From the NCBI GenBank assembly GCA_050084515.1, contig CM114271.1, positions 46,624,001 through 46,688,000 of the forward strand: a DNA stretch of 64,000 nt. Reading direction: 5' to 3'. The notes under the pieces are model-generated. The model did not search any database. It had not been told where the DNA came from and saw only the letters and a program-made list of their open reading frames with translations. Every line of letters starts with the position of its first letter. Position 1 is the stretch's first letter. A program made the translations under genes and the position numbers. This stretch comes from Blasia pusilla (lineage: Eukaryota). Of this stretch, positions 1-52,961 are shown piece by piece.

Positions 1-1660
1 GAGTAGGAACCCATGTACTAGCCAAGAGGATACAACTGGGGCTAGATGGCATGGCGAGGTTGATGAGGAGATGGTGCCAGGTTGGCATGCATCCGCCTTT
101 TATGTTGGTTAGGGGTGGACTCTAGTATGGAGGACCACATGATATCTTACTCTAGTCAGAGGGTAGACGGCCAGCCTTCAGATCCTAAGGTTGGAGATGG
201 TGGTACGGATCAGCGTGATATTCATGATGATGCGTTGGTGTTGGAGTTCCTACGGACCAGTAGGGTGCCAGGCATAGTGAGTGCCAAGGAGCGAGACCGT
301 GTTCTTCAACGTGCTAAGAGGTATCGATTGGAGGGAACACATATTCTCCGCGTGTGGGAGGATGGTAGAGTACGAGTAGTGCCACATTTGGCTCGGAGAG
401 AGCGATTGTGACAGCGACATGTCCATGAGGAGTTGGGACATTTTGGGGTAAAGCGTACGTATAGCTTACTCCTTGGCCAGATTGGTGGCGTGGCATGCAT
501 ACTCAGGTGCAGCAGATTAGTGTCACGTTGTATGGTTTGTGACCGGGTGAGGGCATCATTTAATGCCCCTACACCACAATTACACACCCTTGCCTATTAT
601 GGGGTTGGGTTACCGTTGGAGTGTGGACTTTGCGGGACCGTTACGTTCAGCATGCGACATCATCGATATGTGTTGGTGATGGTGGAGCACTTCTCCAAGT
701 GGATTGAGTTGGTGGCATTACCGGACAAGGCAAGTGAGGGAACGGCGTATGCGTTTCTGGATAGAGTGCTTAGTCATTTTGGTGCACCAGCTGAAGTGCT
801 GACCGACCAGGGTACAGAGTTTCAGGGTGAGTTTCAGGTCTTGAGTGACAAGGCGTTGATTGATCATCGGACCACGTCTCGAGATCATCCAGGGGCGGAT
901 GGTTTGGCTGAGCGTGTGGTTCAGACGGTGAAGAGGGCATTGCGCAAGTATGGCCTCTGAAGCGGCATCTTGGAGACAGGATGTTCAGTTGCCATGGTTA
1001 GCCATGGGGTATAGGTTCAGTCGCCAAGCATCCTTGGCTTCCTTCTCACCTTATTTTCTGTTATATGGTCGAGATCCTGACTTGCCAGCAGCAATTCGTC
1101 AGGAGTCTAGTGAGGTGGTGAACCTTGATGACCCAGAGATGTGGATGAGGGTTTGTTCTCAGCGGGCGGAGCTCTTCCGGAGAGTTATGCCAACAACCTT
1201 TGAGAATCTTGCCATTGCTCAACACAGGGATACGTTGCGGTATGCAACCATTCGAGGTGGAGGTTATCGACCATCGATTCGTAGGTTCCATGTGGAGAAC
1301 TATGTCTATTTGCAGCAGATTGCACCGACAACGTTGGATGTGACGGCAGGCCGCACTATTTTACGAGTGCGCGAGGTGTTAGCTTCTGGAGTTCTCATGT
1401 TGGAGGGTTGTGATGGAGTTGTTTGGAAGGACCATGTGCGTAATTGTGCGCCATGTCATCTTCCAAATGTGGATGGTACTGTTGACCCAAGCTTAGCCAT
1501 GATACGTGCTAGCTTGAGGTGCATGTTGTGTGCATCTGCTGGTAACGCAGCCCGTATGTTGGTGTGTGATCGGTGTTCTAGGGGTTGGCACATGATGTGT
1601 TTGACTCCACGTTTGGATGTTGTTCCTACTGGAAGGTGGGTTTGTCCTCGATGTACTTAG
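1..1660 (+). pseudogene. Retroelement pol C-terminus: integrase (H2C2 + DDE core) fused to a PHD finger; frameshifted
   Basis: ORFs 82-411, 433-960 and 950-1660 join across frameshifts. The last ends CMLC..MLVCDRCSRGWHMMCLTP..VPTGRWVCPRC, a C4HC3 PHD signature. Confidence 0.9.
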
Positions 1661-2411
1661 GAGAGGTAGATGACTTGATCTTTGCATGATATGGATTACG
1701 GATGTGCGACTAACGATGGGGCAACCTAGCACCCGGCCTTCGATTCGGGCACCCAAGAAGGTGTATAGCATGTAGTAGATGTATAGGGCTACAGGAGTTA
1801 GAGGGACCTAACCGCTTGATTAGGGGGCGAGTTGTGGTTTTGTGTGTTTGTGGATACTCTCGTCTATGTTATGTATGTATGTGAGTATGGTATGTCAACG
1901 ATGTATGTTGTATGACGATGTGGATTCGCACGACATTTGTCATGACCATACGGATTATGTCGTAGAGTATGGTGTGCTAGTAGAGGCCATTCCTTATGTA
2001 GGACCGTAGTGGCTTGGTAGAAATGTGGTTCCATACATAGGGTTGGGGTTACTCGGTTGGGGGTGACTTTCCTAGTAGGGCCCGCTCTTAGGTTGGAGGA
2101 TATAAGGTGGAGTGCACTCAAAGAACGATCAGTTCTTTGAGTTGAGCCTGCTTGCGTTGGGAGTTAGCCTTGGTAGTGAGTAGAGCTCTTGGCTATGGTG
2201 TTTCCCAAGCTTCGACCTAGATTCTCCCATCGTGGGAGTGGGTTTGGCTCGATTGTATGTGATTGTACACGTGTTTTATGACAAAGAGGTCTTTCACGGA
2301 TTTCAGTTGTGGTACACTTGTGTTTGTGGATACTCTCGTCTATGTTATGTATGTATGTGAGTATGGTATGTCAGCGATGTATATTGTATGACGATGTGGA
2401 TTCGCACGACA
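1..2411 (+). mobile_element. 3' part of a Ty3/Gypsy-type retroelement (integrase + PHD finger) ending in split direct repeats B-A-B
   Basis: Frameshifted integrase (GHFGVKRT..C..C zinc finger; VEHFSKW, LTDQGTEF, GLAERVVQTVK core) and a C-terminal PHD. Then TAGGGGGCGA (1821-1830), B 1830-1935, TT, A 1938-2304 (starts TGTCA) and B 2305-2411 (ends CGACA). The 5' end lies outside the window. Confidence 0.9.
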
Positions 2412-2899
2412 GTTTTTGTTTATTCAAAATCACTTGCACGTCGAAAAATGTGGACATCTTTTCCACCAATGGGCTCCCAACATACATAATTGGGCACATA
2501 TGAAGAGAAGGATGAGGACATCCAAGGCATAACCATAGAGGTATTAAGAATATATTTCATGGCAAACAAAATGGAAGAATAAGAGCATTTGCAATATGTT
2601 AAGATCATGTTTATGTATCTGGACGTAAGTGTAGACGACGACAACAAGTATCAAAGGATGTCTCAAAGAGAAATGCTGGAAAAGTTTATTTGGTGCAAAT
2701 TCTTGGAGACAAGCTCTTGAAGTCAATCAAGCCATTCTATAATAATTTAAATGAAACAAGTCGAATTTCTTGTATAGCAAATGGAATAAAGTCCCGAACA
2801 AATCTCAGCTTTTATTGAATAATAGATCTCCCTCCTCAAAATGGACCACATGATCCATCAAGATAGATGCATCTCCTTGGAGAAACCTTGAAGTCATAA

Positions 2900-12895: not shown

Positions 12896-13330
12896 CTCAA
12901 GTTTAGAATAAGGGCTATCCCCTTGAACCATGAGAAAAGAAGGATGGGAATACAACTAAACTCTTGCACCTTGCATAATGATGGGGATGAAACCTCTAGT
13001 CATTACTTGGAGTTCACCCCACATTGAGCAAGAGCATATGCTCATATTGCTAAGCTTGTCACACCAAACTTGTTCAACACTTTCAGTAGCCTTGATTCAT
13101 TGCCCAAAGTTGATGTGCTAGTAAGTAATGTCTATTGGAGATCCCTATCAAGTAAAGTAGATAGTGTGGTGAAGAGTTTCTTCGTTGACACTTGGAAGCT
13201 CCGTAGCATCACATTGTTTGTTTAGCACTCATACTATATGAGAGTGTCTCCCTCCTCTCATATGGTACCTTCTCTACTTCTTCCTCTCTCTACACCCATC
13301 CCAATCTCAAGCACCGTCCAAGGTCGCAAG

Positions 13331-13540
<210 letters not shown>

Positions 13541-13877
13541 ACATACATTTATCATATGAATCCTAAAAATCTATACATGAACGATTTGACACACCCAAAT
13601 CCTTAGATATTAAATATGCTTTTAGCTCTAAAATCTACAATTCCATTGTTTTAACATAACATTCACTCCCAACATGACTTGGATATATTTAATATGCATG
13701 CACTTCATGCTTCCAAAAAAAATGTCCAAATCAAGATACACTCAAACATAAATTTGTGATCTCTACATTAATTGTAGCCTGCTATTAATGCAAAAGATTT
13801 CATGCTCAAGACACCAACTTAGCCTTGTTATAATATATATCATGGATCCCATTCTCAAGGTATGATATCTAAAGATG

Positions 13878-16800
13878 TGTCGTGTGCATACACATCGCTG
13901 TCACTCAACACACACACAAACACACACGATCCCATATTATTTCATGGCATCCAAACAACGAGACAAGAAGTACCAAAATATCTCCAATAAAATAAGATCC
14001 AATCTCTCTCAACACCATAGCTCTCAAATGTATGCACTCTCATATGTCTCTCTCAATGTGAAACCTAACCCCCTCTCCTAATGAGAGGCTTGGGTTACAC
14101 ACACAAGGCAAGCAAGACCATAGCTCTGCCGCCTCATGCCAAGAGAGAATGAGCTCTCAAGCTCATTCTCTCTTTGTCGAACCTCTTGGCATGAGGCATT
14201 CTCTCTTTGTCTCAAGCTCTTGACCTGATGTAGGAGGTCAAAGGCCACTAACAAAAAATAGAAAGTGGATCATATATTCAAAATGGTACTTACCTAAAAT
14301 AGTGAGTTCTTCAATATGGCTCCAAATGAGCCGAAATGAAGGCCTCAACAGATCATCCTCGACCTATTGAGCCTGTCCTCCACTACTCATGGAGGCGCTC
14401 TACTAGATCTCATCGATATATCCTAAAAGACGTGACAATTGTCGTGCGCGTACACATCACTACATAACATACATCGATGTTACCGAACACACACACAAAC
14501 ACACACGATCCCATACTAACTCATGGCATCCAAACAACGAGACAAGAAGTACCAAAATATCTCCAATCGCCCCCCTAGTTGGTGGACCTCAAATTGTCGT
14601 GGTTGGCGATGGGATACAGATTCAGTAGGCAAGCATCCTTAGTGTCTTTCTCATTGTACTTGCTTTTGTATGGCCAAGAGCCAGATTTACCTACGGCCAT
14701 TCGTCAAGATGTTGGTGAGGTGTTGAACCTTGATGATCCTGATGTATGGATGCAAGCATGTTCTCAGAGGGTTGAGTTATTTCGGAGAGTGATGCCCATC
14801 ACGTTTGAGAACTTGGCGATTGCGCAACATCGGGATACATTGAGGTATGCGACTATTTGGGGAGGTGGTTATCGACCACCTCCCCAATTTGAGGTCCCAA
14901 TCTCCTAGGTGACATCTCTGCAAGCCATACTTGCATAATCCTCTTCACCGTCTGCACAACCGGCTCAGCTAGTCCATTTGCCTTAGGATGATCTCGCGAA
15001 TTAGTGCGGTTGTCGATCAGTGTCTGATCACACAAGGCTTGAAATTGCCCACGGAACTCTATATCTTGGTCTGTCAACACCTCAACTGGTGCACCATAAT
15101 GACTCAGCACTCAATCTAGGAAGGCATACGCTACTCCCTCACTTGCTTTGTCAGGAAATGTAACCAACTCTATCCACTTTGAGAAGTGCTCGACCATCAT
15201 CAACACATAATGACAATGGCGCTCCGTCAAAGGCAAAGGTCCTGCAAAATCCAAATTCCGTCTATAACCTAAACCCATGATCGGAAGTGGATGCAACTGT
15301 GAAGTCGGAGCATCAAACGATGCTCGAACTTGATCACACACCATGCATTTGGCAACAAACTGCTGAACGTCAGTCTACATGCCTCGACACCAATACGAAA
15401 CCTGGAGCAAGCAGTACGTCCGCTTCACTCCAAAATGACCCAACTCTTCGTGGGCATCACGCACCAAATGTGCTTTCTACAAAGTATGAGGCACTACACG
15501 CACTCTACCACACTCGCAACACATGTGTCCCGTCCCACCAAAACTGTCTGGCTCGCTATAGGATCTGATCCTGCTCTCTAGCATCCATTATGCTCGCGAT
15601 GCTGCCAGTACGTAGGTCCTCCAAGACCACTCCATCATCGTGAATATCTCGGCCACCTGTCTTCTCCTCACGGGCCTCTGGATCTGAGGACTCTCCGTCA
15701 GACCTCGCCATAGAAGTCTCAGCAATTTGGCTCTCCATAGCCAACAAGCCCAAATAGGCTGACACATGCCATCTTGGCACCAACTCCTCATCACTCTCAC
15801 TATGCCAACGAGCTCTAGTTGCATCTCGCTGACTCAGGCATGGGTTACGGCTCAAACCATATGCATCTTGGTTGAGCATCACAGGTCTATGCACCACCTG
15901 GAAGTCATACTCTTGCAACAAAAGAGCCCACCTCGCAAGCTTTCCTGTAAGCTTGTCGGACTCCATCAACCACTTAAATGGCTGATGATCAGTAATGATG
16001 GTAAAGGGATTGCCAAATAGATAACATCTGAAATGTGCGAGAGCCCACACTGAAGCCAAGCACTCACCCTCATACGAGATATACTTTGCCTCTGTAGGGT
16101 TGTTTGAGCGATTAGCGTAAGCCACCACGAACTCTGTACCATCATTGTCAAGTTGGGTGAGCACGACTCCGAGCCCCAACATGCTCCAATCGATATGCAA
16201 ATGGAAAGGATGCCCCCTCATCGGTCTCCTCAATATGGGCGGATGTCAAACTGTCCTTGAGCATCTGAAATGCTCTCCTGCTCATCCCCCCAGTGCCACT
16301 CTTGATCCACCTTGGTGAGCAAGGTCGGTGGCTTTGCAATCGACCTAAAACCCTTGACGTATCGTCGATAGAAGTCCGCCAATCCCATGAATGCACAAAC
16401 TCGACTCACATTTATAGGGCATGGAATGCGTGAAATAGCCTCTACCTTCCTCTACTGCACATCAAGGCCCCCTGGGTATATCGTATGACCCAAGTACTCA
16501 ATCTGGTCGTAGAAGAACTTGCACTGGATGTAGCTTCAGCCCATGTAACTGCAATTGTCGGAACACCTCCTCTAGATGTTGCTCATGCTCCTCAACCATG
16601 GGGCTAAAGACTATGATGTCATCAATATAACACCTAGAAAAATCCAGACCTGTCAAGATCCTATCCATGATCCTCTAGAAATCATTCAGGGTGTTCTTTA
16701 ACCCAAATGGTAAGAACCACCATTGGTACAAGCAATCCTTCCCGTGAGGATCGATGCCTCAAAATGCCGTTTGTTGCCTGTCCTCCAATCTAATAGGCAG

Positions 16801-19800
16801 TTGATAGTATCCGGGTCAAAGATCTAATGAACTGAAGATCTTTGCATGCCCAATAACATCAAAGATCTCCTCATGAGTGGGCATGGCATACCTATCGGAT
16901 TTTGTCTACCGATTGATAGGTCAGTAATCTCCACACATCCGCCTATGTGTCTGCTTGCCATGCACGTCCTTCTTGGCGGGCATGATAGTGGCAGATGCAT
17001 ACTCCCCATGCGACATCTCCACTAGTCTTCCTCCAACCAAGTCCTGGCTCCTACTCTGAATCAAAGCCCTCTCCATGTCACTGTACCTGTAGGGTTTTCG
17101 GAAGATCAGCGTGTCACTCGACAACTTAATGCAGATCCTTGGACCCTTCAGCATATCCAAATCCTGCATACTAAATGCAAAACAGCTCCTATAACTCCTA
17201 AGGAACTGGTGTATGCGGCGCCGCTCTCCTCCTGTCAACTTAGGGCCCATATGTGGCTCCCAAATCTCCATCGTGCCTACAGTAGGACTCTCCGGTATGG
17301 GTGTCGGTGGTTGCTATGGTGTAACCCCGTCTCGGACAACAAAACTCGATTGCTCTCCTGCCACCAACTGCAAAATCGGATCTCCATTTGCAATACCCGG
17401 AACCACGCTCGATGTTGTGTGTACCATCTCCTGGTGTACCTGCAAAACATTCCAAGAAGTCCAAGGGTGTCTCTCCCGATCACCCCTAGTGTGTCGATCT
17501 CCTCTAGTCAACCATTGCCTCGACCGTCTTAGTAGGCATGGGGCTTACCAACGCAACTTTTGTGATCTGTCGCTCCTCAAACGACGTTGCTAAGCTACTA
17601 CTAAGCTGAAAATCTATGTCAAGCAGTTGAGGTACATTCCTTTATCCAAGACATGACGTTATGATGCCTCTGGTAGTGATAATACTACCTTCATTCCTAT
17701 GGGGAATCCCATCACTTGCTCTTGCTCATCGGCGTTAGGCTCCACCAACCTCTATGCCTGGTCATCCCAAACCAAGCCAGGTTCGGCCTCCTTGAATGCA
17801 TAGGAAGTGGGAAAACTCACCAATGTGGGAAAGGCTACTCGTGGCATGCCACTCTTGTGAACCATAATCCATAACCATAACGAGGGTCGATCATCATGCC
17901 TCACTGCCTATGATCGACGACCCGGATCCAATATACAATCCACCAACAAATCATAGGGACGCTCCACTCTCGCATAAGCCCTCCGCAACACCTCAGGTGG
18001 TACCAAGTTGGTCCACCAAAGACACGGGCGGTCTGCTCTAGAACCTACACTCGTCGCATCTAACAACATTGCCGGGCCGATCCATGCACGCACCTTATGT
18101 GCACTCGTCACTATGCGGGACCTTGAATCGCCCAAAATTGACACATTCTCCAAAATGCATATTGGAGAAAGAGGGTGATGCTCATGTAAATATCGCAAAA
18201 TCCGCATCATCTCCCAAAACAACCTGGACCGAGTGTCAGCTAACCCGCTACCTCGTCCAACATTCAATTGGCCCTGACATGGCCAACCAAGTCTATGGTC
18301 CCTACCTGCTCCAAGTCATGCGCCCCCAACAATGAAATGTCCCTCCGTAGGGAACTCTGGTAACCCTTAATGGCATACGCAAACAACAAGTTGGGAAAAC
18401 AGAGGCGTAACTGCGCCACATGGTGAAGTGAAGCGCGCCTCGCAATATCATCAATTTCCACATACAGGTACTGTTCCTCGTGCACTCCACCATGCAAAAC
18501 AACACCTAACCCAATACTGATCCCTCCAAAGAGATCCAACACCCAAATATCCTCCTCTAGGATGCACCACACAATCGGGTTGATGTCCAAAGGGGTCATA
18601 GCAGCACTCCTGCCTACCTGGGGTTCCTCTGACCCGTCACACTCTAGTGCAAACGTCTCGCTCCATGTGGTGTGCACATGCTCAGTGGCTAAGCGTCGAA
18701 GCTCCTCAGTCGAGCCCCAAAGTGGCACCTCTCTTCCACGGACTGGTGAGACTATCATGACACTCCTCTCCATATAAATGTCACGAACAAGAGTATCCTC
18801 TGCATGGATATGTCCCTCAATCAAATCAATAGGCCAAGTGATGGCACTTCTGATTGTTGCTAAGGTCGCCATCTCTTATGGTCGTCGCTCGATCACTACA
18901 CCTGTGAATCGAATGGGTAATGAGCTAAGGCGCCCATCACCTGACTGCCATCCTGGTTTGTAGGACGCTGATTCCTCCCAGTAATCCAGGGAAACCCCAT
19001 CGGGTATAACACTTCTCCACCAACCAAGACATTGTAGGACTCTACATCAATCACTATCGCCTTGGCTCATCTCTAGGATATCCCAGGAAAATCCTCACCA
19101 CAAACTCATGTCGGGTGATATACTGTGTGGTACTCACTCCACCCAAGGATGTCTGTATCTGGAATGGACAACGCTCCACATCGGCTCTCGTCAAGCCCAA
19201 TATTCTGAATGACGCTTTCCCCAACATCAGGGGTTGCGCTCTTGAATCCAACAAGACGCACTGTAGACTAAAAGCTCTACCTCCTAGACTCACCAACTAG
19301 AAGACATCTCCCCAATTATCCAGAAAAACAACACCAAGAGAAGCCATGGCACGCTCTACCATGGGTCTAGCGGGCATCTCCGCCATCCTAGCAGCCGCAG
19401 CCTGCCATGAATTTGACGAATACAGCCCAAGCATCAGCTCCAAGGGCAGGTCCATCACCTCCTCTACAATCACCTCTGAACGTGATGCAAGAACTCCAAC
19501 TCCACGCTCACATAGTGTAGCAGCTAGCTCAAAAAACTCGACAGGGGTACCTCCCAACGTCATAACATAGGAAGCAACAAATAAAGGAGCGCAGTACACA
19601 ACGGTGGCCGCCCACAACAACGTGCTCAACACATGCCCCTCCTGAGCATCAGCAATAGGAGTCATTGCACTCGCTTCTCCCATCGCCCTCCGTGCCTGCA
19701 CACCAACAACATCACCAACTCTCCAGGAACTCTTTATCAGGACCCATCCATGGGGTCCTTATTGCCTCGAACAACGTGAAAGATTGAGGAAGCCTGGTCT

Positions 19801-22800
19801 ATTTCCTGTCTTTTCCTCGATGTGGATCTAACTCTACGGCTGCTCCATGCGTCATAACTGCAGCGGCTTGCATCTGGGCAACCACACACATCCAACCAGG
19901 ATCCTCCATATCTTTAGCTGCTCCATATGATGTCGATGCCATGGATCCGGCATTGGGTAACCTCAATGCCATAGCAACAAACTGCTCCTGTAGCTGCTGT
20001 ATCTGAGCAGCCATCCCAGCCTCACGTCCGGCGTCTCCCTCGACGCGTCTAGGTGGTGGGACTCTAGCTCCTCCACGGGCAGCTCCACCACCCTGTCGAG
20101 CAACTCCAGCTCCTCGTCCCCCAATGGGACCACCGGGTGCATGATCTCTAGGCCCATCCGGACCGGCTACTCGCTCTAGTGCCCTCTCTGGCCCTCGGTC
20201 CGAACATAACTCAGCACGTAAACTGAAATACCTGGCGCGTGTATGACCATACCTTTGACAATAGTCACACTGATAACCTCCTGGTGCAGCACCATCTCCT
20301 CCTTCATGTTGAGGCATAGGTCCACGACCCTGACGAGTGCAATCACGTTGATGATGGGCTCCACCACATGACCAACAAGTAATTGTAGGGGGCTACTGCT
20401 GAGCCGCATATGAAGGTGCAAGTCTCTATGGCACGGCCTCTCGGTATCCTCCTTGAGCTCGTGGTGCCACAATCGACCTATCTCGGAGTCCACGTTGCTG
20501 CACTAGTGGTGCAAAGAATCGTGAGTGCTCTCGCCCAGAATCCATGGTGGCTATGCTCTCCTCCGCCATGTTGCGCTCAATATTCTTGGCGGTCCTAAAA
20601 ACATTTCTCAACGTAGGAGAGGTGTTCATAAGAAGCACCCTCTTCCGCACCCATATCCGTAGGGTCCGGTCCAACATTGTGTATCATGACTGGATAGCCT
20701 GAGCCTCTGTCACCCCCTGAGTGACGTTGATCAACCGATGCAAGCGAGTGTAAGCCTCACACAAACTCTCACTTGGGCACCTCTGGAAGTCGTAGATGCT
20801 CCACAACTTCTCCGTCCGTACCCCCTGGTAGCTCGCCCTCAACTCAGTGAAGAACTCAACCACGTGGTTGAACAAGGGATGAACCCGACTAGACGGTGCA
20901 ACTGCTCCAGTGCGAGTGACCCCTCCTAAAACATCACTAGTGGAAGAGGAAGTAGCCTCTCCTGACTCCTCCTCCTTATCTAGGAACGGCACCGTCCATG
21001 ACAGATAGTGTGGATCATAGTAGAGTCGCCATGCCTCAATCTCATCGACATATCTCTGGGAGAACTCATGATAATCGTCCGTGGGCGCCCCCTCTAAATG
21101 TTGGAACATGCGGTTCCAGGCTGTAAACGAGTTCAACTCTCTAGAGTTCCGGCCCGCTGTGAGTCACACAAAATCCTAAACTCCGCAATGAAGTCGTGTA
21201 GCTCTATAGTGCCTACAACACCCAAAAACCTACGCACTCCTCTACCGCGTTCGTCCATCTTGTATGTCCAACTGGTAGGACCACTCAATATGTACGGTGG
21301 ATCACTAACACACTCCTCTACATGCTCCCCCTCATTTGAAGATAACACAGAAGGAGATCGAGGTGGTCTTTCACGTGGAGACCCTCGAAACCACTCTGGG
21401 TAAACCCTCCAGAGCTACTCTCAGGTCCACTACCTTGCCTCTTAAAATCTTGAAAGGACGCCATGATGGCCCTTGTGCCCCTCTCACACGATCACTCTCA
21501 ATCTTGCAAGTAATCCCTCAGTCACTAAAACTAAAAATGCGGCACTCGATCTACACTCTCTCATTGAGACCTGTGCTGTGTGGCAACAAGCGACGCGGTC
21601 CGGCAAATCAACTGATATATCATCTCATCGACAAACCATCCTCAACTCGGGACATCCCATAAAATTCTATGTCCCCTAAACCCATACATCATTGATGCTC
21701 TCAGCATCAGCACAAAACAATTTCCCAAATAACTTCCCAATATCCGGAAATCCCTCACACATGGAGGGTAAGAGACCAGAATGGGTAACCTGACAATAAT
21801 GTCAATGTCGCTCCTCAGAAACTCCAAATCTCGAACCCAACTTGGTTGTGAAGACAACTCCTTCAATCAGCAAGTCGTACTCCTCTCGTACTAACGCTGC
21901 TCAAACCTCCTCGATGTGCGGTGCACGTTCACCGGTTCGATGCGGCACGGAACGGCTACAAATGACATGGCACTCGAGAATGGGATGCGGCACTCAACGG
22001 CATACCCTCTCTTCTCCTTAGTGAAGGAGTACCTCTACGATCGAGACGGTGCGGTGCGGCCACAAGCGGCGTGACGTGGCAATCGGAGAGCGTTGTGGCT
22101 ACGGGCGTCACGACATGGTACTTCATCGTCGTTGAGCGGCTACCAATCACAACATAGCAACATGAAATAAAAACTCAAACACCATAACTCGAGGTCACCT
22201 GCCATTGGTGGTTGATGACAAAATTGCAATCACAGTGGTGGCCAAACCAAAGTATGTGGTGGCGGCGCAAGTCAGAGAATCAGCGATCATCGTGGAATAC
22301 CCTCCACTCCGTAATGGCGGCAATGGAAACCAAGAGTGGACGACGGCCGAACGCGGCTCTTAGCAGTGCTATGAGGCGGCGGCGGCCAAAGGTGGACCAT
22401 TGATAATGACGGAGGATTGTTGATGGTGATGGTGATCGTCGACGATGACGGTGACTATGACGGCAACGGTCGTCGCCGGCGCGGCGGTTGGTTTAGAGTT
22501 TGAAAAATTTCACCCTTAAAATTGCTTAGCAATGGAAGTTTTGTAAGATTGACCATTACTTTTTGTTTGCAACTTCAAATTGCACACCGTTTGCTGCACA
22601 GCTTCACGATCTGCGATGGCGTGAAAAAACATTTTGAATCAAACATTGCTGTAAAAAGTGACAGGGACTGTTGTAAAACCCAACGTGTCTTTCTCCTACA
22701 CAAAATTCGATAGTGCTTCCATGCTGATTTCTCCCAATAAAAATGTAAAACCAATGAGAACATAAATCATCAAGCTACATGGTGCTCTCGAAAGCACTGG

Positions 22801-23552
22801 CATGGAGTTATCCGCCCCCATACTCAATTCCTATCAAAAATTGGGCAGCCGCTTCCGCGTGCCACTCTCCCATACAAAAAATCAGCAAAGCAAAACAACA
22901 AACTCACACGGCTCTTACTCCATTGAGCACTCTCATGAGCCATGAAGCGGGGAACACGGTCCTCCAACCTACACCAAACATCGAACAACCAGCAAGCTCC
23001 CTCATCAAGCTCTCTCACTCACTCATTCTCTCTTCGTAAAATAAGATCCAATCTCTCTCAACACCATAGCTCTCAAATGTGTGCACTCTCACACGTCTCT
23101 TTCAATGTCAAACCAAACCCACTCTCCTAATGAGAGGCTTGGGTTACACAAACAAGGCAAGCAAGACCATAGCTCCGCCGCCTCATGCCAAGAAGTTCGA
23201 CAAAGAGAGAATGAGCTCTCAAGCTCTCTCTCCTTGAGGTATACCCCTCCCCACTCCCAAGCTCTCTCCATGGTAACCTATGCTCCCAAGTCACCTCCTT
23301 GGCTCTTGACCTGATGTAGGAGGTCAAATGACACTTACCAAAAATATAACGTTGATCATATATTCAAAATGGTACTTACCTAAAATAGTAAGTTCTTCAA
23401 TATGGCTCCAAATGAGCCGAAATGAAGGGAAAACCTGCTCTCTCAGGTTTTCTGGGGCCTCAGTAGGTCATCCTCAATCTATTGAGCCTGTCCTTCACTA
23501 CTCATGAATGCACTCTACTAGATCTCACCGATTCATCCTAAAAGACGTGACA
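13878..23552 (-). mobile_element. Near-complete decayed Ty3/Gypsy-type retroelement (gag-PR-DNMT-RT-RH-INT) with split direct repeats and 4-bp TSD GATG
   Basis: GATG at 13874-13877 and 23553-23556 flanks TGTC...GACA termini. A1 23552-23037; coding region; CTAGGGGGGCGA 14578-14568; B1 14567-14440; AT; A2 14437-13988; B2 13988-13878. Motifs: gag knuckle CDYCQRYGHT, PR LLDSRAQ, RT RRMCGDY and YIDDIIVFS, RH LHIDWSMLGLG..YEGECLA..TDHQP..KLARWAL, INT VEHFSKW and LTDQ. Confidence 0.93.
17590..18548 (-). pseudogene. DNMT3-like C5 cytosine methyltransferase domain inside retroelement pol (copy 1)
   Basis: Motif I VLDLFGGISIG, II YVEID, III RDI, IV GWPCQG (across a small deletion near 18290), VI ILENV, VIII SRADRPCLWWTN, IX EPNADEQEQVMGFP. 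Stops and frameshifts present. Confidence 0.88.
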
Positions 23553-23710
23553 GATGAGCTCCATAATAAGCTTTGCCAAGGGTATACCTTCTTGCTTGAA
23601 AACACCATGATGCTCACATACATGCATAGATTATGCACATGCAATAGATCCCGAAGTACGCAATCTGCATGATCATCTTGATAAAATACCACATAAGATC
23701 CTCTCTATAT

Positions 23711-24456
23711 TGTCATGGTAGATTAGGCGTAGAGCGAGATAGTATCGAGGCCTTAGAGGGATCTTATACTTCCCTATTTTAAGAGGTCATATATTACCTG
23801 CTCTTATGAGGTGACCTACGAGTGTAGGTCACCCTTTCTTTTATGAGGAGTGGCAACCTTAGAGAGGTTGACCCTCCTAGCCATGTATATATGACTTCAC
23901 TTGGACCTATAAGGTCAAGGGTTACTTGGTCGTTAGTCCCATTAAGAGACCACATATGTAGTTGTTAGGGAGTTAGTACTTATATATTACAAGTCATTAG
24001 TTACGTGCTAGGGGGGAGGTGATCTATGTGTGTAGGTCACGCATGGAGGTGCCCAAGGGCGGAATATCTCAAAGGACGCTCATTTAGAGCTCATCTTCCT
24101 TACGATTACACACATGTTGGGATCCGTCAGACCCTGCAGCTTGCATGTATTGAGTATGGATTCTCTCTTGAAGAGTGGGCTAGGATTGATAGAAGATCAC
24201 ACATATTTTGGAGTCCTTTGTATACTTTCTTCTACTATTACAACAGTGTGTATGGATATGGATGTTTAGATGAAGAATATTTGGTCAATTGCAAATTTCA
24301 TTAGAGTTTACAGTCCATATTCAACTTTATTGGAGTCGTGTGGGGCTGTCCAGTCGTTCATGTGTAGATATATTAGGATTTATAGGTAGATGGATTTTAG
24401 ATATGTGTGTGCATGAGAGCCAATTTATGTTGGCAACAATGTCTATTTGCACGACA
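23711..24456 (+). mobile_element. Solo terminal repeat (solo-LTR-like unit) with 4-bp TSD ATAT
   Basis: Starts TGTCATG, ends GCACGACA (same termini style as the split-repeat elements), ATAT on both sides. Homologous along its length to 52962-53706. Confidence 0.85.
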
Positions 24457-27400
24457 ATATGAACCAAGTGTATCTACAGGAAGGAAATGCCTCACAAAAG
24501 CTATAGGATACCCTTATTATTGGCATATCTTACTTCGCCCCATTGGCTCAATGGCATCTTTGATCATATTCACTCTGTTCTTCCTTGAATTCGAAGAGAG
24601 CTTCATTGTTTCTTATTACAATATCATGATTCTCTTCTTCAAGAAGATCTGCTTCTTGATTTGAAGATAGGTAGTAGGTTAGAGATCTTCAATTGTCTTA
24701 TTTATAGAATTGCACATATTAGAAGAAACACCACCTAATATTTTCTATCAAACTTATCCATGCATGGATACACATCTATACTATTATGGGAGAGTACCCT
24801 CTTGCCCGTGCAAACACCTCTCCTTGAGCCACGTGGCGATTTTGGCTAATAAAAATTTGATTTTGGATAATCGTAGTTGTCTGCCAATCTAAGGGTTTTT
24901 TTGAGTGGGACATTTACAACCATCATAGTACTTCAAAACGGTTTTTTTGAACTTTTAAAATTTGTCATGGTGACAGTTATGATCGTAGTAAGGAGATCCA
25001 TCAATGGCAAGATCCTTTTTTTAAGCTTTTAAATTATGTCGTGCTAACCGTTATGATCGTGATAAGGTAGATCTGTTGATGACGAGGTGCTTTCCCTCCC
25101 AGAGTTGTGCAACGGTTTTTCAGGTTATCGTACTCACATCCGACTGTATTTATACCGTGCATTCAATGTAGACACTCATGACGTAGATACAATACGCACA
25201 TACTCACCCAGGTAACCATTTCCACCAACATTGCAAATTGATGTTCCCAGATGATTACAAGTTTTTGAGATGCTAGGCATATGATTGATGTACTCTAACA
25301 ACCTATCTGGTTTGTGAGCTACAACTTTCAAAGGAGTTTTCGAGTCTCCCAAAACTCACAGACTCAACGTTCCTCCACCCAAGAAGCTCGCAACTCGAGT
25401 CGCTAGGAGATCAGGCTGATTGTTCCCCTTCATATCTCCAACACTCCCATGTTGACGGTTCCTCTACATTCCCCTTCAGTTTCAATAGCACTCCCGATTC
25501 GACTTAGGTCCTCAGCATCTCCCAATTTGGAATAACTCCAGGTCCACCTCCAACTCCAGCTACGCTCTAGTTTAGTCGCCTTCTATTTGTTCGACCTATG
25601 CCAGCTCCACATTCTCTCTACAACCATGGCTTCCAACCCTTCCGATAACCAATCGAGCTACATACAAAAACATCAAAATGGCAACAAGGATAACTGCAAA
25701 GAAATCAACACATAGAAAGGGAAAGGGAAAGGCTCCATCCAAAACCACTCCATCAAAGAAATATTATGGTGTAAAGCCTGCTGATCTCAAACCTTGGGAG
25801 AGTGGAAAATAGTTTCCCATCTCTCAAGAAGACTGTGTTTGCCTGAGCATGTGGAAGAAGTCACACTTCAGAATTAGCCCACCTTTGGGGACGAGACTCA
25901 GCCCGGAGCATCCTCCAGACTTTGAAGGTGCAGTAAAGGACTCTCTCCTAGTGGGAGGAGGGCCTCCATTATAAAATAAAGGATATCTTCTTAACTCGGT
26001 TGAGGGGTTGGAAAAATAATTTCAAATCGAAGTCCAAGAAAGTCCCCAATGTTATGTAAGGGGCCCTGCAATTAAAGACCATGCACATTCCACGCAACAT
26101 CTGCAAAAAAAATTCTCAAAACACCTCATCCCAACGTTCAAGAACATTGCTCACCTTCTTAGAAGAGGTCGCCAATCCACATGAACGTGCCCATTAGCTC
26201 TACCCCACAAACCAATGGGACTAAAATAGTTCAGAAAGGGAAAAAAACATCAAGGTGTTATTATAAACATTGAGATTAGGATCTGACCAAACTAGGAGCC
26301 TAGGAGCTTCCCCATCTATAGATCGGAAAGAGTTAGAAAGATTGACTTGCATGTAACGCTTGGTACATGGAAATCAAAGCTTGGTTGGAAATGAAAACTT
26401 AGCTGAACATTACTTTGTCTGAATGTGTGGTTACTACATCAGCAACCCCCTCTCTCTCTCTCTATGTATAGAATTACTCTTCTCGAGTACTCCTGATATG
26501 AGCAACCATGGTCACCGCATTTCACCTACTGGCTCCTCTCGAGTACTCTAGCGACAAGCAATAAGGTTAGAATGTAGAGCACGGATGCGAAAACATGCAC
26601 AAGCTCGAGAGCATAAGGACACTAAGCCTTAAGTCCAAGCAGGAAAGGCGAGGAAACCTGCACGAAGTCTCAATGCTTTGTTGAGTACAAGCCCATGCCA
26701 CCCCCAAGCAATCGCAGTAACCTATGCCACGTGCAAGTAATTTCAGCAACCTTGACGAACAAACAGGAGCAGATTCCAAGGCGAGTACGTAGCAAGATGA
26801 GTCTTGAGCAAAGCCATAGCCAAGGAAGGACCAAGGGCGAGTGGGTGGGCGAGCGAGAAAAATCCTATAGCTAAAAAAGGACCGAGGGTGGGATGTTGAG
26901 AAAAATCACAGAGGATTGTCACATCTGGGTAGCCGATAGGCCGAGATTTATCGTGGATAGGGCGTAGAAGCCAGGGGACTATCTTGAGTGTAACTTTGTC
27001 CCACTGTGTCGGATGAGGTTGAGGATAGGTCCATTGTGTTAGGAACGTTGTTTCTGACAACTATCATGTTGCGGTCTTTCAAAACCGGGTGACTTGTTGA
27101 CCAGGTCATCCGCCCCTGGTAACCTGTGCGCGCAAGTTACCAGGGGGAGGGCTATTTTTAGGGGAAGAGCCTTTTGGCTCTTCCCAACCCTATATAAGAG
27201 AGGAAGATGGATTTCCTAAGCCATCTTTCTCATGTTGGGCCGTTGGAGCATCTCTCTTGTATGTGTGTGAGATAGGACTAGGGTGCTAGCATCCGGATTC
27301 CTTGATAGCACAGGGTGGACGAGGCTCGATATGCCGATCTAGATTGAGGAGTGGAGTTTTAGGCCGGGTGTGTCGTTCTTACTACTCTTTATTTTTACAT

Positions 27401-39835: not shown

Positions 39836-42800
39836 TGCTTGAGTGATCGGACTCTATCCTGGTGAGACCAACTTCTGACGCATTGTGGCGGGCTTCTTGA
39901 CTTTTGGGTCGTTCCCCTACATTCGTCAAACCAGTTGTAGGCTTCTTTTCTTGTCTAAGATGTGCAGGATTCCTACTACCTGTCGGATTGCCATTTTGGA
40001 TTCCCAACCTGTTAGATCGTCGTGGGTGCAGGGTGGAAGAAAATCACTTCTAAAAATCTTTCCTTTCTTATGGTGAGCTTTCTTACGGGTTGGGAGGGGT
40101 GCAGCTTCTCGGTTTCTCAGCCTTAGGATCTGATGTGTTCACATTTCACAAAGTTGGTCTTGAGCAGACACCATTCATAACCAACAGAAAGTTGGTTATG
40201 GGGCAATTTAGGGGAGGCCATGATGCAGGCAACAATCCCTGCAAAAAGAGAGGTTGGCATCCGGGTGGTCCTCCAACAAAAATACCAAGGGCACTGATTT
40301 TTGTTGACCGAGACAGGGAATGTTAAGAAACTTAGGCTCACATGGAGAGTGATGGAAAAATGTTTAGGGTGGTCTTATGATGTCTCCTTTTTCTCGCCCC
40401 CAGGAAAGAGGAGGTTTTTTTAGGGCCAAATGTGGACCACTAAATACTCTCTTCTAAAGATTTCCTGAATTTGAAAGCAAACAAAAATTTCAAATATGTC
40501 AAAAAGTTTTGAAGAGAGGAGGCGGATTTGGCCCTTTTTTTTGAAGAGAGACTCTCCTCTCATCCTCTCTTCCTCTCCTCTCTTACTCTCTCCTGCCAGA
40601 ATACCAGCCCCCGTGATGGTGACGAGTGTAGACTCTTTTCATGTGTGGCATGTGGTGGATATACGGCGGTTTCTACGTAGAGGTTGCATGTATGACCCGA
40701 GAGTGTCGCTAGGTTAGGTGAGTCAGTTGGAAGGCTCATGGTGAGGCCGAGTGTTGAGTGTGCGTGAGGCCGGGTATGTCATCACAGGATTGATGTTAGC
40801 ATAGGTGAGCTAGTGAGGAGTGTGGGAGACTCTCGGTGAGTCTGAGTGCTTGAGCGGATGAGATAGGGTTTTCATCACTGCGTTCTTCTAGGGTTTGGAA
40901 GAACGGGGTAGTGCGAGGAGTAGTAGTGGTGTGACACGGACTGGAGTGAGATACCGAGGGATTACAAGTGAGGAGCTACCTCGACATCCATCCGTGGCTT
41001 GATCGTCATCACTAGACATCGGGTCTGGTGACAAGATCGCAGACGGAGGCAATATCACTTGGCAGGAGATGGACGACAAGGGCCATCGGGGCATGCGTCG
41101 TTTCTCAGGTACAGTGGGCACCATCGCCTTAGATGATTTTATCCACGAGTCCGACACGTGGTGCGACTTCCAGGAGATACGGACCCTGACACGGTTAAAC
41201 CCTTTATGGCATGGAAGGGGTTGTTCCAGCACTTGGAGGGTCCTCCAATGGATGACTACATGGAGTTTTGATCACTATATTCAGTAGAGATCAATGCCCG
41301 GAGGATGTATTGGGCTCCACGGTATGTGTCCAGTAGTGGTCGCGAGGCATATGATGGGATCGTGAGAGGAGAGAGACCCACACCATCAGGCCGGAGACTA
41401 GATGGAGAGGAGGGCAGTGAGATAGGTGATGTGGCAGAGACCTTTGGTGGTAGAGGGCCATCCAGCTTCAGCCCCACAGTGGAGTTCTTCCGACAGTTGG
41501 GGAAGAGCTACCAAGGCATACACACCGACAAGATGAAGAGTCTTCAAGATTTTCAGCGACAATCGGGTGAGAGAGGCATTCATGCGCATGAGGAGGCTAA
41601 TCATTGTTACGTATGGAGTGACTGAGGCGCAGTCAGTCCAGTATTGGTACGGGATTCTAGACGGAGAGCTACGGAGGAGAGTCCGAGATGCGGTGCTGAT
41701 TCACACAGCAAAGCCCACATTGAAGGTGGTCTTTGAGTTGTCTGAGCGTATTGAGCTCAACATGAGTGAGGAGCACGTAGTGACCGCTAGATTTTCTCGA
41801 GAGTCAACGGGTCCACGAGCAACGGTGACCCCACAGTTGCCACAGCGAGCACCAGTACCACGGGATTGGGCCAGTGTGCCCAGAGAGCAGGTCGGGTATC
41901 GTGAGCCTATGAGGCAACGACCCGTACCTACATATGTTGCCCAACACTGACCGATGTGGTCTTGTTGGACGTGTGGAGGGGCCCATAGGCAGAGAGACTG
42001 CCCACAGCATGGGAGAGGACCATGAGCGCCTCCGATTTCTCAAGAGCCACAGAGGATGGCCCCACCACAGCACTAGTGTGACTATTGCCACAGATATGAT
42101 CACACTAGGGATAGGTGTTTTGACCTTCGCCGAGAGGCACGTTCAGAGGTAGGCCGAGGATCTTGGGGCGGTCGTCCTAGAGGAGGTCAGGGAGTTCTTC
42201 CAAGACGTGGTGGTAGAGGATCACAACCAGCCAAAGGAGATGGAGCAGGAGCACCAGAGCCGTCACTTCTCTCACGCATCGATCAGTTGGAGCAGAGGAT
42301 TGTTGCCATGACGATGATGCAACTTAGGGAAGGCACAAAGCTGCGAGCAGCTAGTGTGACTCTAGCTTCTACCTCTTATCCTGACCTGGGTCAGGATCTC
42401 GCTAGTATGGGGTTTATGTGTAGTGCAGCCCAGGTTGAGGCAGCTACAGTGGTGACTCGGGGTGCTGCGAGAGGCATCGAGTCATTGAGAGGTGGAGTTG
42501 AGATTGATCCACCAGAGGGGATTGATGGGTGGCAGGCCAGGGTTCCACAGTCATTCATATTGTCGGAGGCACTACACACACCATCGATTGTGCCTCGATG
42601 ACTAGTGGTGCCTATAGCTCAGGTAGGTACGTCGACATCACGAGAAGTTGGAGTGACAACTCCTATGCCGACTCGAGTGGAGTCAGTGTCGACCATAGTG
42701 TTGGAGGTGGCCACCAGAGTGAGTGAGACTCCACTATTTTCCGCCATAAAGTTGGCGACGTTGGGAGTTGGACCAGCTGAGGTGTTCCGGCTGGCCGCCA

Positions 42801-43784
42801 CATTGTGTGAGCGTGGAGAGATGTATGCTTCTTGTTTAGGGGTAGTTGACGAGGTGGTGGACTTGCCTTGAGAATCGATGCTCAGAACGTTCCCCACAAA
42901 GTCATGGCATGCGGCGGCGGCGAAGTTGGTAGATATGCCAGGTTGACCGGCCACAGAGCGAGCAGTGGTGACACTTGGAGTAGTGTTATTGGATAACCAA
43001 GCTGGATTATTTTGCTTGGTTAGTCCCACGGGGACGGTATACCACCCGCAACGCATCCTACTTGATTTGGGAGCACAACCCTTGATGTTAGGGAAGGCGT
43101 CATCTTTAGGGTTGGGGTTACGGAAGGCCGACATTGAGCCTTGTCCCTTCCAGATACTGATCTCGATTGGGGGCGTGTCACCCACGTAGTATATGACTCG
43201 ACAGGAGATAGTTGTCAGAGTCCAGCCAGAGCATGCGACGGATAATGTTGTGGTGCGTACATGTGCGATTACCACACCAACTGAGTCGTACGATGTGTTG
43301 GTGGGGAGTATAGTGTTATATCCCCTAGGATTCATCCTTGTGGGAGGAGACCGTTGCTTATCGGCCAGGGTGGCAGTCAAGTGACGAGCGGAGGAGTCAG
43401 TTACCTATGCAGTTTGCGGGACAAGGTGGTCGATCACGAGGCGAGTGTGTGACCACGTTGGCAGCTTTCACAGGTAGTGTTAGCTGGCCAAAAGAGTTGT
43501 TGGAGGGGAACGCACATGCGGAGGATGTCCTAGTAGCGGATAGTCCCACGGAGAGAAAGGCCATGGTGGGTGTCTCTTCCCATGTTGGCGAGACCTCTTC
43601 ACCATTGTGGGGTACGACTCCGGAGCTACAGAGGAGTGCCGACGATCTCGTGAGGCAGGCGTGGAGTCATGCCTTTATCCCATAATAGCGCGAGTTAGGT
43701 GGTGATCAGGCTTCTGGAGTGAAGACGTTGACCCCACGGGATACCACACCTGTTGTGTGGTAGTGTCCAGAGGAGGGTGTTAGG

Positions 43785-52955: not shown

Positions 52956-52961
52956 GACAGT

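Follow-up and report, generated by a model that had tools for sequence, protein, structure and literature searches.

Split repeats in a Ty3/gypsy-type retrotransposon family whose inserted copies are probably circularly permuted

Why should a retrotransposon with a DDE integrase end in the repeat order B-A-B, and what would its replicative LTR then be? The locus that raises this question lies at the start of the window, by which we mean the whole 64,000-nt stretch of DNA that was analysed; the element concerned (element 1) is represented by its 3′ part only, its own 5′ end falling outside. Our reading is that 1821-2411 is probably where a dead Ty3/gypsy-type LTR retrotransposon copy ends on its 3′ side, and that this copy belongs to a family whose inserted copies are circularly permuted with respect to the LTR of reverse transcription. 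These copies have the layout TSD-A1-leader-gag/pol-PPT-B1-NN-A2-B2-TSD, with the insertion termini TGTCAYG...CACGACA, and we infer that the replicative LTR is B-NN-A, within which the integrase would cut at the palindrome CACGACA-NN-TGTCAYG. If so, the joint between A2 and B2 would be an end-to-end LTR junction.

A split-repeat terminus and a complete copy in one window

The first-pass annotation of this DNA had read 1821-2411 as a B-A-B terminus with a 2-nt junction. All of its parts are indeed in place, the only correction being that each B repeat begins one base later than had been given (B1 at 1831, not 1830, and B2 at 2306, not 2305). The parts of element 1 are as follows.

1..1660, plus strand: 3′ part of pol, with integrase (H2C2 remnant and rve core) and a C-terminal PHD finger, from ORFs, Pfam and tblastn to the polyproteins of relatives
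1821..1830, plus strand: polypurine-tract-like TAGGGGGCGA, directly before B1, the presumed plus-strand primer site
1831..1935, plus strand: B1 (GTTGTGG...GCACGACA), putative 5′ part of the U3 of the replicative LTR
1936..1937, plus strand: 2-nt spacer TT, centre of the palindrome CACGACA-NN-TGTCATG
1938..2305, plus strand: A (TGTCATG...GGATTTCA), putative remainder of U3, then R and U5
2101-2107, plus strand: TATAAGG within A
2117-2126 and 2132-2141, plus strand: left arm and right arm (GTTCTTTGAG) of a hairpin within A
2306..2411, plus strand: B2, the right insertion terminus, ending GCACGACA
2412..2415, plus strand: flank GTTT, the predicted TSD

B1 and B2 are 97% identical over 96 gapless nt, and their global alignment has 100 matches, 4 mismatches and 4 gap positions. 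The family depth in the DNA runs ends after the 2350-2436 bin, which fits B2 as the right terminus of element 1. Pfam finds rve (4.3e-12, 412-960) and PHD (8e-11, 932-1660) in the pol part, which is split over three frames and thus marks a dead copy.

The window holds a second element of this kind on the minus strand (element 2, 13878-23552), which is complete in the order A1-internal-PPT-B1-AT-A2-B2, with an A-only 5′ end and the 4-bp TSD CATC.

23037..23552, minus strand: A1, the A-only 5′ terminus, with the TSD CATC ahead of it at 23556-23553
23245-23238, minus strand: TATA-like GGTATACC in A1
23215-23203, minus strand: putative self-primer site CTCATTCTCTCTT in A1
23022..23034, minus strand: PBS-like AAGAGAGAATGAG, 2 nt past A1, complementary to 23215-23203 over 13 nt (0/2000 shuffles) and paired with it in the fold
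14579..23021, minus strand: internal region, with gag carrying CCHC knuckles, C5-DNMT fragments, RT, RNase H and integrase
14567..14578, minus strand (read 14578-14567): PPT-like CTAGGGGGGCGA
14440..14566, minus strand: B1
14438..14439, minus strand: 2-nt spacer AT
13988..14437, minus strand: A2
13878..13987, minus strand: B2, followed by the TSD CATC at 13877-13874

The internal region of element 2 is interrupted by many stops and includes an inverted piece of ~300 bp (14585-14878); neither its ORFs nor Pfam revealed a PHD finger. Degeneracy is general, applying to both window copies and to all loci that we examined.

The purine tract, the CACGACA end and the 2-nt spacer, which had been noted as common to element 1 and the element at 13878, belong to one grammar, written on the minus strand in the latter. 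The B repeats had been called otherwise unlike, which is nearly right: resemblance between the two B families is confined to the 3′ end (...GATGTG.A..CGCACGACA) and a TG-rich middle stretch. An exact CACGACA-NN-TGTCAYG stands at 1929-1944 (plus strand) and 14431-14446 (minus strand), and with up to 2 mismatches the window has 6 matches where 0.78 are expected, a number reached in 0/100 shuffles. A third junction-like site, at 52953-52968 on the minus strand, was set aside as part of another LTR family with ordinary-looking LTRs. The 10-mer TAGGGGGCGA is not enriched by itself in the window (3 matches with at most 1 mismatch against 2.04 expected; 34/100 shuffles reach 3). Of 65 related loci that extend 300 nt or more beyond their integrase-PHD match, 50 have a purine/G5 tract in the first 500 nt past it, mostly ~166 nt after the match and immediately before B; the conserved feature of the PPT-like tract is its position.

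The proteins are those of a Ty3/gypsy-type element. The Pfam domains of the family are rve, Integrase_H2C2, RVT_1, RT_RNaseH, PHD and DNA_methylase, in a pol ordered RT - RNase H - integrase, whose RT_RNaseH is of gypsy type and whose integrase is a DDE enzyme (rve plus H2C2). The element 2 ORF at 19799-20392 shows CCHC motifs, with weak Pfam matches at the same place; the relative P0143 matches zf-CCHC at 4.4e-7 and Asp_protease_2 at 3.5e-5. The C5-DNMT domain (PF00145) lies in the gypsy polyprotein, with values of 1.4e-5 in element 2, 0.0019 in locus L057 and 2.6e-9 to 1.7e-5 in relatives, and the motifs FxGxG, PWQ (PCQ in element 2) and ENV can be read in the translation. A tyrosine recombinase (PF00589) was matched neither among the 15, 10 and 6 ORFs of the window and L057 nor in the polyproteins of four relatives.

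Ends of related elements

The same grammar is repeated in our comparison set of 80 related metagenome loci. Fourteen distinct 5′ ends could be collected (12 metagenome loci, L080 and element 2), and in every one of them A is followed by the leader, never by B. An A-only 5′ end had been proposed as a family feature, alongside the split repeats, the PPT-like tract before B and a TSD, and all four proposals gain support: the tract precedes B1 in both window elements as well as in the related loci, and the 11 elements in which both ends are readable comprise nine with a perfect 4-bp TSD, one with 3 of 4 and one (L080) with none. No copy examined begins with a complete A+B LTR followed by a PBS, which would have been the contrary outcome. 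The layout of element 2 recurs in L020, L024 and L057, with the TSDs AAGG, TCTC and CATA, respectively. Within an element, A1 and A2 are 90.6-94.8% identical and B1 and B2 90.9-95.2%, values close enough in each case to place both pairs in one insertion event. The mirror form, A-B-NN-A-leader...PPT-B, is found at 0/14 distinct 5′ ends, while the observed form is found in 4-6 of those elements.

Short TSDs and TG...CA termini are as expected of Ty3/gypsy elements. The two insertion ends do not carry an LTR of identical complete form, the 5′ end being A only and the 3′ end B-NN-A-B, and the places expected in Ty3/gypsy elements for the PPT, just before the 3′ LTR, and for the PBS, just after the 5′ LTR, are occupied only on a B-NN-A definition of the LTR. 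The split direct repeats A1...B1A2B2 are those of the DIRS order, which is not known to leave a TSD on insertion, whereas this family has 4-bp TSDs.

Self-priming and transcripts of the family

No tRNA genes were found in the window, ARAGORN printing none for the window and the 80 loci, and by eye 0/3 post-A1 sequences start with TGG. The sequence after A1 is complementary to a site in A, located 122-179 nt before the A end and ~27-33 nt after the TATA-like motif (a distance counted by eye). The pairing uses different sequences in three subfamilies (13 nt, 0/2000 shuffles; 11 nt, 3/2000; 13 nt, 0/2000), the predicted 5′ end and the post-A1 site covarying across them, and both MFE and centroid folds pair the two. 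As far as sequence can tell, this points to self-priming of a Tf1-like kind; Tf1 primes with the first 11 nt of its own RNA.

Raw stranded RNA reads from runs X22 and X23, placed on the coordinates of element 1, show the family to be transcribed in the source species. Sense-strand depth is 60-240 over 1-2262, continuing through the PPT, B1, NN and A (110 in X22 and 155 in X23 at position 1936). In the 2263-2349 bin it is down to 17 (X22) and 13 (X23), and the 2350-2436 bin retains 2 and 4, respectively. The spacer is GT in most expressed copies, position 1936 reading G in place of T in 98/110 (X22) and 144/155 (X23) first-mate-minus reads. Moreover, 18 X22 reads join the last base of A (2305) straight to a non-B leader, CTCAAAGAAC..., which is the complement of 2132-2141; a joint of the A end to a leader with the self-primer complement had been forecast from element 2 and was then met in these reads.

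No rise in depth was seen over the presumed R in the X22 and X23 RNA reads. The sole molecule start to be flagged, at 2098, comprises 20 molecules beside a depth of 86, in X22 only, where a start at 2132, 34 nt farther downstream, is predicted; PCR copies or the clipping of diverged copies may account for it, and we do not count it as a mapped TSS. We read the joints 178->1188, 1783->1878 and 2235->1967 in the RNA as variant copies.

Summed over Logan contigs, word depth reaches 14,000-195,000 across the element, compared with 3-11 in the flank, a contrast that shows a repeated family, summed word depth being no measure of copy number. Several air-metagenome runs contain a small share of these words, from which we draw no habitat.

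A possible route to the inserted form

In the route that we propose, the steps from transcription to cDNA are based on the PPT, the PBS, the TATA-like motif and the RNA reads, and those concerning the integrase cut and the junction are put forward less firmly. Transcription would start inside A, ~30 nt past the TATA-like motif, pass through the leader, pol, PPT, B1 and NN into A2 and end near the A end, giving an RNA of the form R-U5-PBS...PPT-[B-NN-U3′]-R. The first 10-13 nt of this RNA would pair with the sequence directly after A1 and prime the minus strand by Tf1-type self-priming, the PPT would prime the plus strand at the first base of B, and ordinary strand transfers would yield a linear cDNA with the LTR B-NN-A at each end. 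The integrase might then leave the cDNA tips unused and cut after both CA's of CACGACA^NN^TGTCAYG, a single staggered cut that could produce two 3′-OH CA ends, recessed behind 5′ overhangs of 2 nt and shaped like processed retroviral ends.

Since the A2|B2 joint unites the predicted right cDNA tip (the U5 end) with the predicted left tip (the first base past the PPT), it would be an LTR-LTR junction. Such a junction may form by end-joining before integration, as a 2-LTR circle that is opened at the palindrome of one LTR, or alternatively after an inside-out integration, through host repair of the two free tips. A linear cDNA with B-NN-A LTRs, an LTR-LTR junction intermediate and cleavage at the palindrome are what we infer. 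A 3′ copy of R is kept only in the A1...B1-NN-A2-B2 form, so only that form could found new copies. The strongest version of this proposal, namely, that the integrase routinely cuts the LTR-internal CACGACA^NN^TGTCAYG instead of the cDNA tips, that an end-joined LTR-LTR junction lies on the productive pathway and that the inserted copy is a circular permutation of the replicative genome, is tentative, and we consider it somewhat more apt to fail than to hold. What counts against random opening of a 2-LTR circle at either palindrome is that the mirror form should then equal the observed form in frequency, yet none of the 14 ends has it.

Two different sites (L001 and L010/L011) have snap-back ends, in which A2 is followed by C and then by the reverse complement of A[1..~188], ending CATGACA|flank. 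Ends of this kind would be expected had a longer molecule, with the self-primer at its end, primed at the PBS and had the integrase then used the inverted A start as the right end.

The absence of mirror forms would also be accounted for by a DIRS/Ngaro-type route operating with a DDE integrase, in which B1-NN-A2 acts as an internal complementary region (cf. DIRS-1), a bridging template across which an incomplete cDNA, perhaps single-stranded, regains both ends and is closed into a circle, which is then inserted. PMC7192593 draws PAT-like and Ngaro elements with the layout A1...B1A2B2, and PMC5890265 describes it for SymbioDIRS-Dnmt3 as well. We nevertheless regard this route as improbable: with its PPT next to B1, its self-primer PBS next to A1, a TATA-like motif and R at both ends of the RNA, the family has a complete ordinary LTR cycle, for which no bridging template is needed, the ORFs and relatives scanned hold no tyrosine recombinase, and the 4-bp TSDs point to DDE integration. 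Far less credible still, and already contradicted, is an ordinary LTR element with LTR A+B that has been rearranged, the extra B1 being tandem or nested insertion debris or a misassembly and the A-only 5′ end a deletion. A+B of element 1 does have TG...CA ends and, at ~470 bp, resembles a normal LTR, but the layout recurs at many independent sites with different TSDs in three subfamilies, the PPT abuts B1 and not A2, raw RNA reads connect the A end to the leader, and a 5′ A+B occurs at none of the 14 distinct 5′ ends.

It also seems unlikely to us that the integration unit is A...PPT-B, cut from the linear cDNA at both LTR palindromes, with B|flank as the normal product and B-NN-A-B as a minority by-product. 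Many metagenome contigs end B1|flank with matching TSDs; after manual correction, ~23 distinct 3′ ends stop at B|flank against ~13 distinct B-NN-A-B ends, and the six B|flank contigs that include their own 5′ end show a perfect 4-bp TSD in L004, L005, L013, L066 and L072 and 3 of 4 in L067. Such copies, however, would lack the 3′ R and could not be copied again, and both window copies have B-A-B. In addition, a single site is seen with B-A-B in L046 and with B alone in L066; the pair is only 91% alike in the element part and 99% in the flanks, so the repeat parts of the B|flank contigs may be composite. A deletion between B1 and B2, or a short-read assembler that skips the loop and collapses the repeat, explains B|flank ends equally well, and we have dropped these contigs as proof of direct A...B integration.

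Our preferred reading, a B-NN-A LTR that is cut internally, can be set beside several known systems. Retroviral 2-LTR circles are regarded as by-products, and among retroviruses and other LTR elements an end-joined LTR-LTR junction is a dead end. HIV-1 integrase is reported to cleave the palindromic LTR-LTR junction internally (PMC1905944), and the cut that we propose would resemble this activity on 2-LTR circles in being a DDE cut at a palindrome of U5 end and U3 start, away from the tips. The retroviral palindrome is the circle junction itself, whereas in this family it lies inside each LTR, has a 2-bp spacer and is apparently the regular integration site. The Tf1/sushi chromoviruses, among them the plant Tcn1 clade that Neumann et al. 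2019 (PMC6317226) describe from mosses and club-mosses, have no tRNA-type PBS and a predicted RNA start complementary to the post-U5 sequence, as the present family appears to, and their hosts, too, include bryophytes. Ordinary LTRs and a chromodomain set them apart from the present family, with its permuted split repeats, PHD finger and DNMT.

To our knowledge, the DIRS-order Ngaro and PAT-like elements make no TSD. They employ a tyrosine recombinase, in contrast to the DDE integrase, 4-bp TSDs, PPT and self-primer PBS found here, and share the split direct repeats A1...B1A2B2, with a B1-A2 joint that repeats the joint of the element's two ends; their mechanism is, in the account of PMC7192593, still largely a model. 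If the strongest version of our proposal is true, Ngaro/PAT and these gypsy elements arrive at split repeats by a common logic, in which a tandem-LTR intermediate is opened at a fixed internal site, here by an unrelated enzyme. The PPT, the self-primer and the junction palindrome can each be mutated, which makes this a concrete and testable model for the origin of split direct repeats. A DDE-integrase retrotransposon without matching LTRs also breaks the rule on which LTR finders operate, so that such families would be missed or misdated in bryophyte genomes.

Our search of main texts found no mechanism for the permuted-LTR layout and, among the papers listed, no relevant account combining Marchantia, PHD and DNA_methylase; judged by titles and the starts of abstracts, 12 of the 14 matching papers on split direct repeats include no apparent DDE-integrase element with this layout and instead cover tyrosine-recombinase elements, reviews and other topics. 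The layout itself is already known from the figure legend on KnitGypsy-Dnmt3 of Klebsormidium nitens (de Mendoza et al. 2018, Nat Commun, PMC5890265), an element with a Gypsy-type pol, a C5-DNMT and, per the Fig. 4 legend, A-coding-B-A-B repeats. The present family is like it in all three respects, a likeness by description of layout and domains; on the C5-DNMT in pol and the DIRS-like repeat arrangement, compared with the Fig. 4c legend, we would assign the family to the 'Gypsy-DNMT3' kind. Section 9, the Fig. 4 legend and the searched passages of PMC5890265 give no TSD, PPT/PBS, junction palindrome or mechanism for KnitGypsy-Dnmt3, and the passages make no mention of a PHD finger such as this family has. 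Carrying two chromatin modules, the C5-DNMT and the PHD finger, the family is of interest for how transposons handle host silencing. The host of KnitGypsy-Dnmt3 is a charophyte alga, unlike those of the named relatives of the window's proteins, which come from liverworts and a moss; relatives are many in liverworts and mosses.

Split repeats in two elements of the window

Positions 1821-2411 form the 3′ end of a plus-strand retroelement (element 1), a degenerate Ty3/gypsy-type copy whose 5′ part lies beyond the window, since integrase coding lies upstream: positions 1-1660 encode a broken integrase (Pfam rve, 4.3e-12) with a C-terminal PHD finger (8e-11). Sequence reading and motif location agree to within one base with the coordinates of a first-pass annotation. 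With A and B denoting the two parts of the split repeat, A1/B1 and A2/B2 their first and second copies and NN a 2-nt spacer, this end is laid out as follows.

1821-1830, plus strand: polypurine-tract-like stretch (PPT), TAGGGGGCGA
1831-1935, plus strand: B1, GTTGTGG...GCACGACA
1936-1937, plus strand: spacer TT
1938-2305, plus strand: A, TGTCATG...GGATTTCA
2306-2411, plus strand: B2
2412-2415, plus strand: flank GTTT

B1 and B2 are 97% identical over 96 gapless nt, the full alignment comprising 100 matches, 4 mismatches and 4 gap positions. A second element (element 2; 13878-23552, minus strand) is a complete copy.

23556-23553, minus strand: target-site duplication (TSD) CATC, 5′ side
23552-23037, minus strand: A1
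23034-23022, minus strand: AAGAGAGAATGAG, after a 2-nt gap from A1
between 23022 and 14578, minus strand: gag/pol, ~8.4 kb
14578-14567, minus strand: PPT-like CTAGGGGGGCGA
14566-14440, minus strand: B1
between B1 and A2, minus strand: spacer AT
14437-13988, minus strand: A2
13987-13878, minus strand: B2
13877-13874, minus strand: TSD CATC, 3′ side

The 5′ end of element 2 is without B, and CATC stands on both sides; the A-only 5′ end and TSD that the annotation had predicted are thus seen here. Its ORFs encode CCHC knuckles, C5-DNMT fragments (PF00145, 1.4e-5), RT_RNaseH (5.2e-33) and integrase, and no PHD finger was detected in this element. About 300 bp of its integrase C-terminal coding region (14585-14878) are inverted within the element and read on the plus strand, while 14916-15500 reads on the minus strand.

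Both elements carry an exact match to CACGACA-NN-TGTCAYG. At up to two mismatches, this motif occurs 6 times in the window against 0.78 expected, a count reached in none of 100 shuffles. Across the family, NN differs (TT, GT, AT, GC, AC) and both half-sites are kept. The 10-mer TAGGGGGCGA by itself showed no enrichment in the window.

Several other repeats lie nearby. A 769-nt LTR-like repeat is present in two copies of 79% identity (23710-24457 and 52961-53707, minus strand), the first of them 158 bp from the element 2 insertion. Both copies end in CCA(C/T)GACA; in the 52961 copy, AC-TGTCATAC comes next and leads to a CCHC gag, and a palindromic end/leader junction therefore exists in another, ordinary-looking LTR family too. 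Besides elements 1 and 2, a third piece of this family's kind of polyprotein (43767-45521, plus strand, within 40762-48185; DNMT and part of RT by tblastn to relatives) is flanked by long inverted repeats, including 1208-nt arms of 89% identity (42133-43340 and 45509-46716). Arrays of period 8-10 nt occupy 13230-13667 and ~58038 onward (listed by the repeat finder as 54 overlapping copies), one of them adjoining the 3′ flank of element 2 on the outside.

Layout of the family among relatives

The integrase-PHD ORF of element 1 gave 367 matches, the named ones being from Marchantia polymorpha, Calypogeia fissa and Sphagnum fallax at no more than 88% identity, and the DNMT region matched Marchantia and Sphagnum polyproteins; these matches indicate a bryophyte-like source, probably a liverwort. 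Intact relatives showed the domain orders CCHC-protease-DNMT-RT-RNaseH-integrase (P0143) and RT-RNaseH-DNMT-integrase-PHD (P0147); another polyprotein, P0144, is ordered like P0147 by tblastn, with no DNMT by Pfam. No tyrosine recombinase was found in the intact relatives' polyproteins examined.

A scan of metagenome contigs yielded 80 related loci. The annotation had taken the PPT-like tract before B for a family feature, and this is borne out: of the 65 loci whose downstream sequence spans 300 nt or more, 50 have a G-rich purine tract within 500 nt 3′ of the PHD stop, mostly ~166 nt past the integrase-PHD match and just ahead of a 113-nt B. B-NN-A-B comes next in 15 loci, which represent 9 distinct sites when counted automatically by flank and about 13 once L036, L052/L054, L050/L051 and L073/L074 are included by eye. 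The same layout characterizes a subfamily (L073, L074, L080) with an integrase only 58-60% identical. Fourteen metagenome loci, or 12 distinct sites (L005 equals L006, L020 equals L061), provide a 5′ end; with L080 and element 2 added, all 14 distinct 5′ ends are A-only. Perfect 4-bp TSDs (CATC, AAGG, TCTC, CATA, TGTT, ACTA, TACA, ATTA, TGTG) flank 9 of the 11 elements with both ends readable, the exceptions being L067 (three of four bases) and L080 (none). Compared inside single elements, A1-A2 identity (90.6-94.8%) is similar to B1-B2 identity (90.9-95.2%). Overall, the first-pass observation is confirmed and its interpretation supported.

The same short sequence, starting TCGCAACCCCACT, breaks B in L050 (1722-2558; equal to L051), leaving a gap of ~835 nt from A to the remaining B2, and in L021 (~2870), within B1. 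This insert is possibly a small mobile element with a preference for the spot.

Transcripts and a putative self-primer

Two stranded raw-read RNA runs with the same species label (X22 and X23) were mapped to 1-2600 at 90% likeness. Sense-strand depth was 60-240 over 1-2262, across PPT, B1, NN and A (110 and 155 at 1936). The 2263-2349 bin had a depth of 17 and 13, and the 2350-2436 bin one of 2 and 4; because of this fall past 2262, we conclude that transcripts stop near the A end and seldom reach B2. In 18 X22 reads, the last base of A (2305) is joined to CTCAAAGAACTAGAG..., which is both the reverse complement of 2132-2141 and the leader that element 2 had let us forecast for the subfamily of element 1. 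A single molecule start was flagged, at 2098 in X22 (20 molecules next to a depth of 86) and not in X23; it was not accepted as a mapped TSS, being at odds with the predicted start at 2132. A further 16 (X22) and 25 (X23) reads jump from 178 to 1188, with 1009 nt of integrase sequence missing and TGAGAACTT between the two sides; as the ends are CA..TA, this is no canonical intron, and we read the joint as coming from an expressed family variant with a deletion.

Directly past A1 lies a sequence complementary to an internal site of A, with three different sequences in three subfamilies: 13 nt in element 2 (0 of 2000 shuffles reach this), 11 nt in the L004 type (3 of 2000) and 13 nt in the L080 type (0 of 2000). 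In all three, the site lies 122-179 nt short of the A end and, by eye, ~27-33 nt past a TATA-like motif (GGTATACC, GGTATAAA, GGATATAA). The leader starts with (C/T)TCAAAGAA[CT] in 13 of the 14 loci with a 5′ end, with an offset of a few bases in L059; in L066 it starts with TTGAAAAAC. In both the MFE and the centroid fold, the predicted RNA 5′ end pairs with the post-A1 site. By analogy, this complementarity is the pattern of Tf1/sushi self-priming, the Tf1 self-primer being the first 11 nt of its RNA. For the moss Tcn1 clade, self-priming is predicted by Neumann et al. 2019 (PMC6317226).

Proposed replication and integration, and known elements

Since the PPT adjoins B1, the primer-binding-like site (PBS) adjoins A1, the presumed promoter and R are within A, and RNA covers PPT-B1-NN-A2, we take B-NN-A to be the replicative LTR. 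By standard LTR logic, the linear cDNA would carry B-NN-A at both ends. The inserted copy runs from TGTCAYG to CACGACA inside a 4-bp TSD, which argues that integrase acts at the LTR-internal palindrome. Cuts after both CAs of CACGACA-NN-TGTCAYG would leave two recessed CA-3′OH ends with 2-nt 5′ overhangs, the same form as retroviral processed ends. The A2|B2 joint, ...TTTCA|GTTGTGG..., matches exactly the predicted right cDNA tip followed by the predicted left tip, and we infer that it is an LTR-LTR junction. It might arise before integration, from a 2-LTR circle that is cut open at a single palindrome, or by inside-out integration, with the free tips then joined by repair. HIV-1 integrase is reported to cleave a palindromic LTR-LTR junction internally (PMC1905944). 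The RNA, PPT and PBS part of this model is well anchored; the integrase cut and the A|B joint we only infer.

Further support comes from two independent sites, L001 (1283-1798) and L010 (3361-3878; equal to L011), where A2 is followed by C and then by A[1..~188] in reverse-complement orientation, a fold-back at the hairpin/self-primer whose outer end is CATGACA|flank. These ends fit PBS priming by a longer molecule ending in the self-primer, with the inverted A start serving as right end.

Two observations are problems for the model. If a circle were opened at random, the mirror form A-B-NN-A-leader should be as frequent as the observed form, yet it was found at 0 of 14 distinct 5′ ends. Moreover, about 23 distinct contigs show B1|flank ends, 6 of them also with a 5′ end and 5 of these 6 with a perfect 4-bp TSD. 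We do not score them as direct A...B insertions: L046 (B-NN-A-B) and L066 (B only) are one site, and B1-B2 deletion or loop-skipping in short-read assembly accounts for such contigs equally well. The element parts of L046 and L066 are just 91% identical, against 99% for their distal flanks, a mismatch that may reflect quick repeat decay, gene conversion or composite assembly; we take it as a hint that the repeat parts of B1|flank contigs may be composite.

The split-repeat layout is drawn for Ngaro and PAT-like elements in the Fig. 1 legend of PMC7192593, and going by that legend our family has it in common with them; its enzyme, TSD, PPT and PBS are of the LTR-element type. In the literature, supplements aside, we found no account of this bryophyte family with a PHD finger, nor of its TSD, self-primer, internal palindrome or any mechanism, and Marchantia, PHD and methyltransferase each have 0 occurrences in Neumann et al. 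2019 (PMC6317226). A 2026 preprint has the wording "streptophytes (Gypsy-DNMT3)". For KnitGypsy-Dnmt3 of Klebsormidium nitens, the legend of Fig. 4c in de Mendoza et al. 2018 (PMC5890265) gives a DIRS-like repeat arrangement with gypsy domains, and by that legend a split arrangement in gypsy elements bearing a DNMT has thus been recorded before.
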